Positions 5,899 to 60,625 of a DNA stretch of 64,000 bases are shown here, piece after piece. The notes under the pieces are model-generated. The model worked only from the letters and a program-made list of their open reading frames with translations, had not been told where the DNA came from and ran no database searches. The DNA comes from a phage. The stretch lies in the sequence record PZ496581.1. One strand, given 5' to 3'. Made by a program: the position numbers and the translations under genes. The stretch's first letter is position 1. Every line of letters begins with the position of its first letter.

Positions 5899-6135
5899 TT
5901 ATAGTGTTCCATATACTCGAGTTGCTTCAACTAAACCGTCACTGCCTAATTTAAGGCTAGTAATCTGGTCACCATCTTTAGGATTAACGATTATGAGAAA
6001 AGAACGTGGAGATTCTTGAATAACTCGTAATGTTGCATCCTGGAAACGTTCAGACACTTTATTGATGAGTGCTTGAGCAAATTCTTTTACTTTAATCTGA
6101 AATTCGTGTACTGTAATTGGGTTTTCACTTAGCAT
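5899..6135 (-). CDS. Hypothetical protein (78 aa)
   Basis: Track ORF with its own early-type promoter upstream. Confidence 0.45.
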   Translation of the reverse strand: MLSENPITVHEFQIKVKEFAQALINKVSERFQDATLRVIQESPRSFLIIVNPKDGDQITSLKLGSDGLVEATRVYGTL

Positions 6136-10934: not shown

Positions 10935-11318
10935 AGGCGGGTTGAACTTTTTGATAAAAAGCGGTTCTTCAAGGTCCATTGTTGCGATGGTCATTGAACC
11001 AAGTTCGTTGGTGACTGAAAGGTCAAAACATTGGCGGGCCCAGAATTCAACCTTTTTGCCTTGCATTAAGGCATCCAAAATCATAAGTGATTTTCTTGAA
11101 TCTGAAGTCTGGTCTTTTCGATTTATGGCTGTTCGATAATAGTTAATGCGTTTCTTTAAATTCTTGGTTTTACCAATATACACAAGTTCGTCATCTATAG
11201 CAATAGCGTATATGACATTTTTCTTATTAGGGACATCAACTGTTTTAATTGTTGCATCTTCTAATAGCTCCAATTCTGTATATTTAATAAAGGAATATTC
11301 GGCGGCAATATCTTTCAT
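10908..11318 (-). CDS. denA: Endonuclease II (GIY-YIG-like), 136 aa
   Basis: VIYAIAIDDELVYIGKTKNLKKRINYYR GIY-YIG-like core; same length and position (beside nrdB) as T4 DenA. Confidence 0.8.
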   Translation of the reverse strand: MKDIAAEYSFIKYTELELLEDATIKTVDVPNKKNVIYAIAIDDELVYIGKTKNLKKRINYYRTAINRKDQTSDSRKSLMILDALMQGKKVEFWARQCFDLSVTNELGSMTIATMDLEEPLFIKKFNPPWNIQHKKK

Positions 11319-11326
11319 AATAAAGT

Positions 11327-56952: not shown

Positions 56953-57447
56953 TCACAACTTATTAATATTTACTTTAATTCGCTTTCTTTTCTTGGAAGG
57001 AATTTGTTCGGGACCTTTATTTACGACTGCACCTGTAGTTGTTCCTGATGCAATAGCTTGAGGACTGCCGCCTGAATCACCAGCAACCATATCCTCAAAT
57101 AAAGGGAGTTCTTTAAATATTTCTTTCTGTTGTTCTTCCGTAATGTTATAGCGTGAAGCTACAGCACTCCAAGCAGACATCATTGATGCCATTCCATTAA
57201 GACCTGGAACAGTGTTCATCATTCGCTTCATTGAACGAACTGAAGCATGAAAAGGTGTATAAGCCGCTTTCTCTTCAGGAGTGGAAGGGCGTTTAAGAAC
57301 ACTTCCACGTTCATCGATGATTTTGGCTTCGTATGCTTTCCATTCGGTAAAAGGTTTTTGCATTAGTCGAATAAACTTATATGCGTAAACAGAATCTATT
57401 GCAGTGTTAATAATACCCATAGGTACCTCCTGAGTATATTTAATCAA
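56953..57447 (-). CDS. Hypothetical protein (164 aa)
   Basis: Track ORF. Confidence 0.5.
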   Translation of the reverse strand: MIKYTQEVPMGIINTAIDSVYAYKFIRLMQKPFTEWKAYEAKIIDERGSVLKRPSTPEEKAAYTPFHASVRSMKRMMNTVPGLNGMASMMSAWSAVASRYNITEEQQKEIFKELPLFEDMVAGDSGGSPQAIASGTTTGAVVNKGPEQIPSKKRKRIKVNINKL

Positions 57448-57638: not shown

Positions 57639-58298
57639 TTAACCTCGATTCATAAATGCATTAAATATTTGGTCATCAACAGAAATTTCTAATTCGACTT
57701 CAATTGCTTCAGCCTTTTCTTCAGGTGGTAATTCGTATCCACACACTACAATTTTTTCATCGATATCAAAATATACAGAAGCAATACGATTAATGTTATT
57801 TTCAGTTAAGTCTAATTCAACATCAACATCTTTTTGGCCTACACTTAGAGGATAACTAATACGGGTTATTTTATTATCTTTAACAAAGAGTCCACCAACA
57901 TACTCTGTACTACGTTTGAAGTTTACACGTTTCCGAATTGAAAGATATGATGCATCTTTACCGTGAGCTCGGCTCATAGCACATAATGAATAGCTAGAAT
58001 AAGAGATGTCAAATCCTACACCTTCAATATGAGCCAACGTGTCATGATTAAACCAATTATAATCATATGCCAAATCCATTATATTGTAATATGTGAAAGG
58101 CACAGGATTAACATCATATGTTGTACCTTTAAAATCTGCCCAGGCAACGATTTCGTTATCTTTAACAATTACAAAAATTACACCGAGATGGTATCCGTTA
58201 TTATTTTCATTCGGCGTTATATTATAACATTGTGCATTAGGAAATTTACCATATTTAAATGGCGCATTTTTGTGCATATAATAAATCATATTATTCAC
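57639..58298 (-). CDS. Hypothetical protein (219 aa)
   Basis: Track ORF. Confidence 0.5.
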   Translation of the reverse strand: MNNMIYYMHKNAPFKYGKFPNAQCYNITPNENNNGYHLGVIFVIVKDNEIVAWADFKGTTYDVNPVPFTYYNIMDLAYDYNWFNHDTLAHIEGVGFDISYSSYSLCAMSRAHGKDASYLSIRKRVNFKRSTEYVGGLFVKDNKITRISYPLSVGQKDVDVELDLTENNINRIASVYFDIDEKIVVCGYELPPEEKAEAIEVELEISVDDQIFNAFMNRG

Positions 58299-58584
58299 CT
58301 GTGATTTCGGTTACGATATCTTTGTTATCGAAATTAGGGTCACAATACAAAACATAGTTGTACTGCATGATACCGCCAGACTTAAGTTGTTCAACAACTT
58401 TATTAACCATATTAGGACGGTCTCGTTTAGTGATGTTCATGATATCAGAGAAGATTTGTTGTTCAACATCTTCTTGATTTGCAGTCATTGACCACTCACA
58501 GAGGTCTTTATCATAACCTGCCGTAACTGGAGCCGGTGCACATGATACTGCAAGTAAGATTGCTGCCAATGATAACTTTTTCAT
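58291..58584 (-). CDS. sp: Spackle periplasmic superinfection-exclusion protein (97 aa)
   Basis: Signal peptide then AGYDKDLCEWSMTANQEDVE...LKSGGIMQYNYVLYCDPNFDNKDIVTEITGE, matching remembered T4 Sp. Confidence 0.8.
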   Translation of the reverse strand: MKKLSLAAILLAVSCAPAPVTAGYDKDLCEWSMTANQEDVEQQIFSDIMNITKRDRPNMVNKVVEQLKSGGIMQYNYVLYCDPNFDNKDIVTEITGE

Positions 58585-58647
58585 TTTAACTCCTTAGTTG
58601 ATTTGATAGGACTACTATACTATAGTCCATCTATAATGTAAACAAGT

Positions 58648-58896
58648 TTATTCTTTTTCGCGAATAATAATTACTTGTTGAGGCTGCTGAGCCGATTTCT
58701 TTTCGGCAACGATAGACCAAATTAAAGTTCCAATCCAACCAACCATCGTCCAGTTAAAGAGTAAAGATACAAAGAAAATTGCTGTTGTGCTTTTTGTGCC
58801 ACGAATAAGTGCGATTACCCAAGGCAACATGTAAATGATGATTGAACCAATACCTGCGATTAAAACTGCTACTGAACTAGCTACGAATAATTCCAT
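58648..58896 (-). CDS. Superinfection-immunity (Imm-like) small membrane protein (82 aa)
   Basis: YMLPWVIALIRGTKSTTAIFFVSLLFNWTMVGWIGTLIWSIV resembles the superinfection-immunity family signature; two TM helices. Confidence 0.5.
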   Translation of the reverse strand: MELFVASSVAVLIAGIGSIIIYMLPWVIALIRGTKSTTAIFFVSLLFNWTMVGWIGTLIWSIVAEKKSAQQPQQVIIIREKE

Positions 58897-58957
58897 GTTA
58901 ATTTCCTCTTGATTTGTTATGTTTATAGTATCTTATTTTAACTTTGGTGTAAACCAA

Positions 58958-59326
58958 TTAATTAAATTTGTTTAAACGTTCAATACACTGGACGTAGTTA
59001 TTCGCGATTTGTTTCTGGGTAGGCTCTTTACCGGTTGTTTCAACATAGCGAATGAATGCGATTTCAGTAGCCTGTAAGCAATGTTCTTTAACGCGTTGTT
59101 CTTTTGACAATGCTACAGTATCAGAGTCACGATAACGTTGAGCATGGGCATCAGCTTGAATCATTCGATTACCTACAGTAACCGGGTCTTCCACTTCAAC
59201 TTTAGGTTGGTCGTACTGTTTAACATTCGGATTGTAAATCAATTGGCCGACGTTATTAGGGATAAAGCCATGGGCACCACATCCGGTTAATCCAAACACC
59301 ATTGCTAAAGCGATTAATTTTTTCAT
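58958..59326 (-). CDS. Lipoprotein (122 aa)
   Basis: Signal peptide with lipobox LTGC (MKKLIALAMVFGLTGC). Confidence 0.5.
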   Translation of the reverse strand: MKKLIALAMVFGLTGCGAHGFIPNNVGQLIYNPNVKQYDQPKVEVEDPVTVGNRMIQADAHAQRYRDSDTVALSKEQRVKEHCLQATEIAFIRYVETTGKEPTQKQIANNYVQCIERLNKFN

Positions 59327-59386
59327 TTCAATTTCCTCTGTAGTTGATAGAAAGATAGTAACACAGTATGTGGTGCTTGTAAACAG

Positions 59387-59644: not shown

Positions 59645-59792
59645 ATGCTTTAACTAATGCTTTGTTCACTTCAGCAAGTTGTACCGTAACCCACTCGATT
59701 TCTTCGCGATCACCTGATAACATGATATCTTTAGTGAACATCTCACCGCTTTTAAACCAACCGATAAAAGTAACTTTAGTTAATTTGCTCAT
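59601..59792 (-). CDS. dmd: Dmd antitoxin (inhibitor of RnlA/LsoA RNases), ~63 aa
   Basis: KVTFIGWFKSGEMFTKDIM...AEVNKALVKAFVNDEKVFEADFRG matches remembered T4 Dmd; start moved to MSKLTKV. Confidence 0.75.
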   Translation of the reverse strand: MSKLTKVTFIGWFKSGEMFTKDIMLSGDREEIEWVTVQLAEVNKALVKAFVNDEKVFEADFRG

Positions 59793-60106
59793 ATTTCCTC
59801 GCAAAATGCCCATTCAGCGTGATAAACTGTAGCACCTTTAGTATTATTCATTTGAACTACGTCTACCGGAGAAATTACTCGATAGAGACGTGGTTCACCT
59901 CCATAAGAGCGTGCTGCTCGTCCTGCATAAATCTTTGCTAAACCGATATCTTCAGTAAAGAATACACGATCCAAGTTTTTCTTACGTCCAGTTTCAGACA
60001 GAACTCCTGTTTCCTCAGGAGGACAAAGCATGTTTTCGATGTTAGCTGAACTACTTGAACCGTGATAAAAAATCTTAAATTCTGCTTTACAATCGATGGT
60101 TTTCAT
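59789..60106 (-). CDS. Hypothetical protein (105 aa) with H-G-S motif
   Basis: Track ORF; contains FYHGSSS; between gene 41 and dmd. Confidence 0.45.
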   Translation of the reverse strand: MKTIDCKAEFKIFYHGSSSSANIENMLCPPEETGVLSETGRKKNLDRVFFTEDIGLAKIYAGRAARSYGGEPRLYRVISPVDVVQMNNTKGATVYHAEWAFCEEI

Positions 60107-60132
60107 TTTGTTCTCCAGTAGTTGATAGGACT

Positions 60133-60161
60133 ATAATAACACAACTACTGGAGAAGTAAAC
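60133..60161 (-). promoter_or_regulatory. T4-type early promoter (-35 GTTTAC, 17 nt, -10 TATTAT) nested in a 12-bp inverted repeat that pairs with the downstream Shine-Dalgarno
   Basis: Arms at 60142..60153 (in the spacer) and 60113..60124 (contains the GGAG of 59789..60106). Confidence 0.45.
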
Positions 60162-60536: not shown

Positions 60537-60602
60537 AATGTTTTCCTCTTGGTTGGTGTAAGTACATCATATCATGCCTAGAGGAAGATGTAAACCCCGA
60601 AA

Positions 60603-60618
60603 GGAGACCGAAGTCTCC
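60603..60618 (-). terminator. UUCG-tetraloop hairpin downstream of gene 41
   Basis: ggagac-cgaa-gtctcc; the -35 GTTTAC of the next promoter follows. Confidence 0.4.
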
Positions 60619-60625
60619 TTTTTTA

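Follow-up and report, generated by a model that had tools for sequence, protein, structure and literature searches.

The imm.1, imm and sp genes of an RB69-group phage: probably three known T-even early genes in the Mosigvirus order

Do three small genes for envelope-targeted proteins, lying side by side between dmd and the primase gene of a T-even phage, form an exclusion locus beyond that of T4, or are they known genes in a different order? The question is raised by a stretch of 64,000 nucleotides of phage DNA (sequence record PZ496581.1, hereafter the window), in which a preliminary description placed a Spackle gene (sp) next to the genes of an Imm-like membrane protein and an extra lipoprotein, and proposed a consolidated superinfection-exclusion or envelope-modification locus. 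The three minus-strand open reading frames are present (Table 1), and the cluster does lie between dmd and the primase gene. It was also correct that T4 imm is found near gene 42, and that the genes are grouped differently in T4. Taken together, the evidence makes it very probable that three already known T-even early genes are found here in the order of Mosigvirus, the RB69 group.

Comparison with phage RB69 (Mosigvirus) revealed 99.0% nucleotide identity over 3 kb. Gene set, order and spacing are all shared with RB69, with no difference of substance; the window represents another Mosigvirus isolate, the genome start point of which differs from that of RB69. The GenBank record of RB69 (AY303349) already labels the three genes as imm.1 (AAP75939), imm (AAP75938) and sp (AAP75937), and the locus is thus ordinary and previously annotated. 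At 95% identity or more the same arrangement was found in about 156 phage records (roughly 134–156 Mosigvirus records). Several Mosigvirus isolates have an Imm that is 100% identical to that of the window, and Imm.1 shares 99.2% identity with its RB69 counterpart. All three proteins score above the curated Pfam cut-offs and have matches in PHROGs, and no match was found for any of them in NCBIfam or PADLOC. A search of 57–61 kb against Rfam returned nothing at E values up to 0.1. No experiments on Imm.1, Imm or Sp of the RB69 group were found in the searchable literature, so that the functions given here follow from orthology with the T4 proteins; lipidation and promoter activity are likewise predicted. 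The main genome review of the T4 family does not mention imm and sp.

Table 1. Genes and putative early promoters of the imm.1–imm–sp locus (positions in the window).
Feature	Position	Strand	Description
sp (spackle, gp61.3)	58291..58584	-	97 aa; periplasmic gp5 tail lysozyme inhibitor, by orthology
Early promoter of sp	58614..58643	-	GTTTACA-N17-TATAGT; -10 inside 6-bp-stem palindrome GGACTA..TAGTCC
imm orthologue	58648..58896	-	82 aa; two hydrophobic segments; superinfection immunity protein, by orthology
Early promoter of imm	58925..58954	-	GTTTACA-N17-TACTAT; consensus match; without T4 counterpart
imm.1 orthologue	58958..59326	-	122 aa; putative periplasmic lipoprotein with lipobox L13-T-G-C16; Cys83 and Cys114 conserved
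Early promoter of imm.1	59355..59384	-	GTTTACA-N17-TACTAT; consensus match only

The product of sp was described as clearly recognisable, and the profile searches agree. It matches the Pfam T4_Spackle family PF25676 over residues 1–96 of 96 (145 bits, cut-off 27; E 1.1e-42), and the solved Spackle chains 6x6o/6xc0/7cn6 in the PDB are matched with an E value of 1.4e-39. Alignment to T4 Spackle (PDB 6x6o, 6xc0/6xc1, 7cn6), also of 97 aa, is ungapped, with 66% identity. On sequence comparison, the signal region MKKLSLAAILLAVSCAPAPVTA/GYDKD aligns to the T4 signal peptide without gaps, and the GYDKD at the start of the mature protein is conserved relative to T4, for which a mature protein of 75 residues has been reported (PMC7677548). 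The disulfide pair of T4 Spackle, the residues contacting gp5 and the mechanism have been described (PMC7677548), and the roles of both Imm and Sp have been documented (PMC7677548, PMC11436027). Cys29 and Cys81, as well as the gp5-lysozyme contacts S32, M33, T34, A35, Q37 and N76, are all found at T4-equivalent positions in the translated sp. By orthology with T4, Sp would be a secreted periplasmic protein that binds the lysozyme domain of the incoming phage tail-spike gp5, and inhibition of this lysozyme would leave incoming tail tubes unable to cross the cell wall. In both phages sp is located upstream of 61.2, whereas its own upstream neighbour is imm in the window and 61.4 in T4. The sequence of the sp promoter in the window is not obviously that of the T4 sp promoter.

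The 82-aa protein, which contains the core LPWVIALIRGTKSTTAIFFVSLLFNWTMVGWIGTLIW quoted in the preliminary description, had been called Imm-like on the basis of this core. A profile search places it in the superinfection-immunity family and not in an unrelated membrane-protein family: it matches PF14373 (Imm_superinfect) over profile positions 1–42 of 42 with 56.9 bits (cut-off 27.9), and PHROG 1039, "immunity to superinfection", with an E value of 1.2e-30. The family assignment therefore stands, whereas the implied additional gene does not, as the protein is the sole imm orthologue. It is collinear end to end with T4 Imm, with 53 of 83 positions identical (64%) and one gap. Each of the 1041 phage records that gave a match has a single imm site, and no imm was found in the gene 43–42 interval of RB69. 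The two hydrophobic stretches of Imm comprise roughly residues 1–34 and 38–63, and Kyte-Doolittle windows > 1.6 cover residues 1–34 and 40–59. T4 Imm (83 aa; PF14373) is of nearly equal length and shares the two hydrophobic segments, the C-terminal tail QVIIIREKE and the position of imm.1 in front. The two phages differ in the location of imm, which is between 61.4 and sp in the window but between 43 and 42 in T4, and in its start, which in the window has its own promoter within a 61-nt spacer, whereas in T4 it follows imm.1 after 11 nt. Imm is predicted to be a small inner-membrane protein, and would stop the delivery of superinfecting phage DNA across this membrane. Even for T4, little is understood of how Imm works (PMC6832632).

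For the 122-aa protein, the suggestion of a lipoprotein agrees with visual inspection of its start, MKKLIALAMVFGLTGC, which carries a canonical L-T-G-C lipobox. The N terminus consists of a basic n-region (MKK), a hydrophobic h-region (LIALAMVFG) and the lipobox LTGC16, as judged by pattern match ([LVI][ASTVI][GAS]C within the first ~25 residues). The cysteine of the predicted lipid anchor is conserved in five of six full-length members of the Imm.1 family, and the Cys83/Cys114 pair is invariant in family alignments from which one divergent, possibly frameshifted homologue was left out. The view of this gene as an extra one could not be upheld. It is the orthologue of T4 imm.1, to whose product (125 aa) it aligns over the full length with 32% identity (E 1e-18), and it matches PF17578 (DUF5481; 37.3 bits, cut-off 27) and PHROG 1754 (E 5e-29). 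Furthermore, imm.1 is located directly upstream of imm not only in the window and RB69 but also in T4 and in a metagenomic T-even contig (L011). The T4 protein (PF17578) has the lipobox LAGC where the window has LTGC, and a YNPNVK motif, an AQ-YR-SD motif and two conserved C-terminal cysteines are found in both, whereas an extra cysteine pair near the N terminus of T4 Imm.1 is lacking in the window. The RefSeq label of T4 imm.1, "iduronate sulfatase", is supported by nothing in these data.

Homologues of Imm.1 are few. A word-indexed search returned only three matches, and an exhaustive HMMER search only eight cluster representatives in 1.84 billion. The family has too few members to be aligned in depth. 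Built from an alignment of six sequences, the AlphaFold2 model was of poor quality (mean pLDDT 63.5) and confident only for a C-terminal helical hairpin at residues 75–120; a Foldseek search of this low-confidence model against the PDB gave no match below an E value of 4. No functional inference can be drawn from such a model. Between RB69 and T4, Imm.1 is 32% identical while its neighbours are 57–86% identical, and given this divergence its function may differ between the two phages. Receptor-blocking exclusion lipoproteins such as Llp of T5 and Cor of phi80/N15 (PMC9586334, PMC11436027) resemble the predicted Imm.1 lipoprotein in being small, phage-encoded and made to act in the envelope; this is a possible functional analogy only, as Pfam, PHROGs, NCBIfam and PADLOC gave no relationship of Imm.1 to Llp or Cor, the only matches being DUF5481 and PHROG 1754. 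We consider imm.1 to be the gene of a putative small periplasmic lipoprotein that travels with imm.

How the two genes came to lie beside sp is indicated by their position in relatives. Downstream of gene 43, which encodes the DNA polymerase, imm was found in T4, JD18, Merlin, PS2, 4S, fDHCT2, RZ and the metagenomic contig L011, and sp directly follows 61.4 in T4 and in a Dhakavirus that shares genes of the size of the RB69-specific ORF041c/040c. In T4 and JD18, the two genomes for which both positions were mapped, imm and sp are ~6 kb apart and sp is located between 61.4 and 61.2. A relic marks the old site: T4 has a small membrane ORF behind imm, which is absent after imm in the window and is kept in the original interval as RB69 ORF054c. 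The latter is homologous to the small ORF of the T4 imm–42 spacer (57% over 30 aa, E 6.5e-11) and also to the ORF after imm in L011. The imm.1–imm pair has thus been relocated as a unit, into an order that only Mosigvirus shows; the direction of the relocation is argued by parsimony from an unrooted set of about eight sampled lineages. In the RB69 lineage the pair, together with the imm.1 promoter, would have been excised from the gene 43–42 interval and re-inserted between 61.4 and sp, and the small membrane ORF left behind.

Two further proposals on the move were discarded. In L011, imm.1–imm seemed to lie at a third genomic site, after frd.3; the first ORF of this contig is the C terminus of gp43, so this is the ordinary site near gene 43 with one extra gene. 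Displacement of the pair by the arabinose-modification cluster that follows gene 43 in RB69 is not required either, as both imm and a gene for arabinose-5-phosphate isomerase are present there in Serratia phage 4S.

The locus resembles the promoter-flanked mobile cassettes (PeSL elements) of T4-type phages, in which single genes are bracketed by TTTACW-N17-TAYWAT promoters, lie in a plastic region and vary in position among relatives (PMC4122927). All this applies here. The stem-loop component of such elements is clear here only at the promoters of sp and ORF040c and downstream of gene 41. It was proposed that the lipoprotein gene has its own promoter, and a T4-type motif is indeed located upstream of it; imm.1, imm and sp are each preceded by GTTTACA-N17-TA(C/T)(T/A)(A/G)T, in agreement with the early promoter consensus of the T4 group, TTTACW-N17-TAYWAT (PMC4122927). 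In the window, GTTTAC-N18-TANNNT was found at 15 sites, always on the minus strand, against a chance expectation of 0.94. This 16-fold over-representation argues for a real promoter class and not for chance matches. T4 has no counterpart of the imm promoter, because its imm.1–imm spacer is only 11 nt long. When eight early promoter regions were compared by hand, the imm.1 promoter was closest to that of T4 imm.1 (30 of 45 positions); likenesses between promoters are only suggestive, as they reach at most 30 of 45 positions with the shared consensus included. No terminators were found after imm.1, imm or sp. Since each gene has its own predicted early promoter and no terminator intervenes, nested transcripts that read through the locus would yield all three products in the first minutes after infection.

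The pairing of imm.1 with imm deserves separate consideration. In at least six lineages imm has a lipoprotein gene in front of it, a modestly new point that suggests that Imm.1 works with Imm. In its strong form, this would make Imm.1 a third, unrecognised factor in exclusion or envelope protection, which might contact the incoming tail tip or a receptor from the periplasm, with Imm acting in the inner membrane. We regard this as a possibility, though one that is probably wrong. In support of this speculation, genes for lipoproteins that carry the lipobox L(T/S/A)GC and a pair of cysteines near the C terminus directly precede imm in Tequatrovirus, Mosigvirus, Jiaodavirus, Moonvirus, Muldoonvirus and Serratia phage 4S, the pair stayed joined during the Mosigvirus move, and the profiles of the mature proteins are weakly related (hhalign E 1.7e-4). 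The fast divergence of Imm.1 (32% identity against about 65% for Imm and Sp) also fits conflict-driven selection. However, hhalign gives a probability of only 50%, imm lacks such a partner gene in Dhakavirus-like, Gaprivervirus and Gualtarvirus phages, and one homologue has lost the lipid-anchor cysteine. The structural model is of poor quality and is without structural neighbours, and adjacency alone does not prove a shared function. Moreover, imm alone on a plasmid reportedly excludes T4 (Lu and Henning, 1989). It is equally tentative, and somewhat doubtful, that the lipoprotein and Imm form a conserved two-component module of the Straboviridae, present in these lineages and kept together in the Mosigvirus move, and that Imm.1 would be a periplasmic third player whose fast divergence sets which competitors are excluded.

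The new position beside sp could itself be adaptive, in that imm.1 and imm were selected to lie there for co-regulation or for joint inheritance as an exclusion module. The arrangement is fixed across the Mosigvirus records, the upstream promoters may read through into sp for lack of intergenic terminators, and the neighbours are also conflict genes, namely dmd on the upstream side and 61.2/AdfA (anti-DarT) on the downstream side. Fixation among the close relatives of a single genus demonstrates inheritance and not selection, however, and each gene has kept or gained its own promoter, which makes an operon logic unneeded. The genes work at a distance of ~6 kb in T4, where both functions were defined, the separation is the same in JD18, and six further lineages keep imm beside gene 43. 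In T4-type phages, promoter-flanked cassettes are also known to change places among plastic regions with no grouping by function (PMC2839356, PMC4122927). An adaptive clustering is therefore improbable, and we found no evidence for the functional regrouping implied by a "consolidated" locus. Lastly, that the 82-aa protein is an added, diverged Imm-like paralogue and the lipoprotein a new acquisition, forming with sp a novel dedicated exclusion locus, would fit the position unlike that of T4 and a pangenome study in which Imm.1 was scored absent from the RB69 group (PMC5885020), a score that shows how far the gene has diverged, but it is already refuted, and can be given hardly any credence, by the single copy of imm in every phage record with a match and its absence from the RB69 43–42 interval, by the end-to-end identity with T4 Imm, by the full-length alignment of the lipoprotein with T4 Imm.1 and its passing of the DUF5481 cut-off, and by the T4-like order of imm.1 then imm.

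The relocation of known genes thus very probably accounts for the locus, and for discovery this means little, as the names in the RB69 GenBank record are years old and the biology of Sp, and partly that of Imm, has been worked out in T4. The comparison does show T-even phages moving promoter-flanked gene cassettes between plastic regions, here with a clear before-and-after and a relic ORF at the old site. Since the genes of Imm.1 or similar lipoproteins accompany imm in many genera, a knockout of imm.1 would be an inexpensive and reasonable approach to the mechanism of exclusion by Imm.

ORF calling recovered three minus-strand ORFs exactly where the preliminary description had placed them, and the plus strand at the locus carries short ORFs only (≤50 aa). 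A 3-kb stretch around the locus is 99.0% identical to RB69 (genus Mosigvirus) and matches about 156 phage records at ≥95% identity, 134 of them with coverage of ≥80%. The names imm.1, imm and sp are already given to these ORFs in the RB69 GenBank record, and the genes of the locus are known and previously annotated. A search of 57-61 kb against Rfam gave no match.

Coordinates of genes and sequence features at and around the imm.1-imm-sp locus
Feature	Position	Strand	Description
RB69ORF032c/61.1	56953..57447	-	fused ORF
61.2	57639..58298	-	directly after sp; Pfam AdfA (anti-DarT factor A), 3.8e-118
sp	58291..58584	-	ORF, 97 aa
imm	58648..58896	-	ORF, 82 aa
imm.1	58958..59326	-	ORF, 122 aa
RB69ORF040c	59789..60106	-	105 aa, PHROG 2110; overlaps dmd start
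Inverted repeat	60113..60153	-	spacer ORF041c/ORF040c
GC-rich hairpin	60596..60625	-	just 3' of gene 41

The 82-aa protein matches the Imm_superinfect family PF14373 (56.9 bits, cut-off 27.9) and PHROG 1039 "immunity to superinfection", and contains two hydrophobic stretches. Aligned end to end, it shares 64% of its residues with T4 Imm, the C-terminal QVIIIREKE among them. A translated search with this protein found 1041 phage records with exactly one match in each, and no imm is present in the RB69 43-42 interval, the site of imm in T4. The 82-aa gene is therefore the only imm of the phage and not an extra copy. By analogy with the T4 orthologue, Imm would reside in the inner membrane and block DNA delivery by superinfecting phage (PMC11436027); the mechanism of T4 Imm is still unclear (PMC6832632).

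Sp matches Pfam T4_Spackle end to end (1.1e-42), PHROG 1586 and the solved Spackle chains in a PDB sequence search, and aligns with T4 Sp at 66% identity without gaps. The Cys29/Cys81 pair of T4 Spackle is kept at the same positions. Furthermore, the residues that touch the gp5 lysozyme domain in the Spackle crystal structure (S32, M33, T34, A35, Q37 and N76; PMC7677548) are retained. Like its T4 orthologue, Sp would be exported to the periplasm and inhibit the gp5 lysozyme domain of incoming virions (PMC7677548).

The 122-aa protein is Imm.1: it matches PF17578 (DUF5481; 37.3 bits, cut-off 27) and aligns with T4 Imm.1 over the full length (32% identity, E 1e-18). At the N-terminus both have a basic, hydrophobic signal sequence that closes with a predicted lipobox, LTGC here and LAGC in T4. 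DUF5481 is a tiny family (8 of 1.84 billion cluster representatives) that conserves the motifs YNPNVK and AQ-YR-SD; two C-terminal cysteines are invariant in alignments omitting P0004, a divergent, possibly frameshifted member whose C-terminal part differs. Imm.1 is by far the most diverged protein of the locus between T4 and this phage (32% versus 57-86%), which is why one pangenome study recorded the RB69 group as lacking it (PMC5885020). The T4 RefSeq label for imm.1, "iduronate sulfatase" (NP_049661.1; 11637..12014 of the T4 region L002), copied into other phage records, is unsupported: the product is a 125-aa predicted lipoprotein that matches DUF5481 only. In P0002, a 46% identical homologue on a metagenomic T-even contig (L011 718..1086), LAGF replaces the lipobox LAGC, with loss of the anchor cysteine, and is followed by a signal-peptidase-I-like site (AHA/S); this homologue is probably soluble in the periplasm rather than lipid-anchored.

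The gene order in T4 is 43, imm.1, imm, 42, with 41, dmd, 61.4, sp, 61.2 elsewhere, whereas RB69 is transcribed in the order 41, ORF041c, ORF040c, dmd, 61.4, imm.1, imm, sp, 61.2, ..., 61. Since imm.1 precedes imm in T4 as well, the lipoprotein gene, previously taken for an extra one, is the normal upstream neighbour of imm, and the pair moved jointly. A position of imm just 3' of gene 43 is shared by T4, Klebsiella phage JD18, Citrobacter phage Merlin, Serratia phages PS2 and 4S, the Dhakavirus-like fDHCT2, Gaprivervirus RZ and the metagenomic contig L011. In JD18 sp stands on its own between 41 and 61, and in a Dhakavirus phage with RB69-type genes after 41, 61.4 is followed directly by sp. 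A relic is found at the old site in RB69: ORF054c (36 aa; 5924..6034 of the RB69 region L003) shares homology with a small membrane ORF located between imm and 42 in T4 (57% over 30 aa, E 6.5e-11) and with the ORF after imm in L011 (1341..1490). The simplest account is that imm.1-imm was excised from the 43-42 interval in the Mosigvirus lineage and inserted between 61.4 and sp. Promoter-flanked cassettes are known to shuffle in T4-type phages (PMC2839356, PMC4122927).

Members of this membrane ORF family comprise 36-49 aa and end in ...PVMIPT..GW....LQ.K(Y/F)EC(F/I)N; the T4 member (L002 ~11231..11320) is unannotated in the RefSeq record, and RB69 retains its member despite the departure of imm. 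The RB69 interval after gene 43 (L003 1598..6699) holds sugar-nucleotide genes, namely those for a nucleotidyltransferase and a GutQ-like arabinose-5-phosphate isomerase. In Serratia phage 4S a gene similar to the latter follows imm immediately at the same site (L010 1647..3195), so the sugar-nucleotide cluster and imm can coexist there.

In each of the three short spacers, the coding strand has a promoter-like site (GTTTACA-N17-TACTAT/TACTAT/TATAGT) and, after it, a Shine-Dalgarno sequence. The 64-kb window contains 15 copies of GTTTAC-N18-TANNNT, always on the minus strand, where chance predicts 0.94; this count was reached in 0 of 100 shuffles. As a sequence motif, it agrees with TTTACW-N17-TAYWAT, the consensus of early promoters in the T4 group (PMC4122927). 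A simple terminator scan, which failed to flag the GC-rich hairpin after gene 41, found no terminator-like site between imm.1, imm and sp, and read-through by upstream transcripts is therefore expected. Expression of the three genes would be very early, through their own predicted promoters and read-through. Among eight early promoter regions compared, that of T4 imm.1 is closest to the imm.1 promoter in the window (30 of 45 positions), which weakly suggests that the promoter travelled together with the gene.

A perfect 12-bp inverted repeat (CTCCAGTAGTTG ... CAACTACTGGAG) flanks the -10 element of the predicted promoter upstream of ORF040c, and the Shine-Dalgarno GGAG of this gene sits within the second arm; in read-through transcripts the hairpin would mask the ribosome-binding site. 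Two other promoters have similar palindromes across the -10 element, that of sp here (6-bp stem) and that of T4 dmd (10-bp stem). The hairpin after gene 41 (GGAGAC-TTCG-GTCTCC, then TTTC) immediately precedes the next early promoter, a terminator-plus-promoter layout that resembles composite motifs of T4-type phages.

ORF040c had no match in Pfam, NCBIfam, PADLOC or PDB sequences. For a related phage, one RefSeq record apparently labels a gene in this stretch "ADP-ribosyl transferase", a name that our searches neither support nor refute. The AdfA profile begins at residue 4 of the listed 61.2 ORF, and we therefore place the true start, probably, at the ATG at 58289, one base past the sp stop codon. 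Near 57270 the window has one A more than the RB69 reference (GAAGAGAAAGCGG versus GAAGAG-AAGCGG), which fuses RB69ORF032c and 61.1 into one ORF of ~155-164 aa; this reflects either an error or frameshift in the 2003 RB69 sequence or a true isolate difference.

The preliminary description suggested that the trio forms a consolidated superinfection-exclusion or envelope-modification locus. Its interpretation as a whole is partly supported. The grouping is real and fixed within Mosigvirus, but promoters, spacing and synteny gave no evidence that it was selected. Each gene has a separate predicted promoter, and imm in RB69 has gained a candidate promoter that T4 imm lacks, the imm.1-imm spacer being 61 nt here versus 11 nt in T4. 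Furthermore, ~6 kb separates imm from sp in T4 and JD18, and six further lineages still have imm adjoining gene 43. Conflict genes are generally abundant around the locus, with dmd upstream and 61.2 downstream.

The association of imm with a lipoprotein gene is wider. Directly upstream of imm, JD18, Merlin, PS2 and 4S carry a gene for a 146-152-aa predicted lipoprotein whose lipobox reads L(T/S)GC and which has two C-terminal cysteines; at least six lineages thus combine imm with a lipoprotein, whose gene stayed beside imm during the move. Three other lineages have imm without such a gene. Comparison of mature-region profiles between Imm.1 and the 146-152-aa group is suggestive only (hhalign probability 50%, E 1.7e-4), and two metagenomic relatives of Imm.1 have motifs common to both groups. 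It is plausible that Imm.1 acts alongside Imm; the structure model of Imm.1 was too poor to inform such a role. The relocation is a small note for comparative genomics, and the Imm.1-Imm partnership, a modestly new point, may serve as a testable lead of modest interest.
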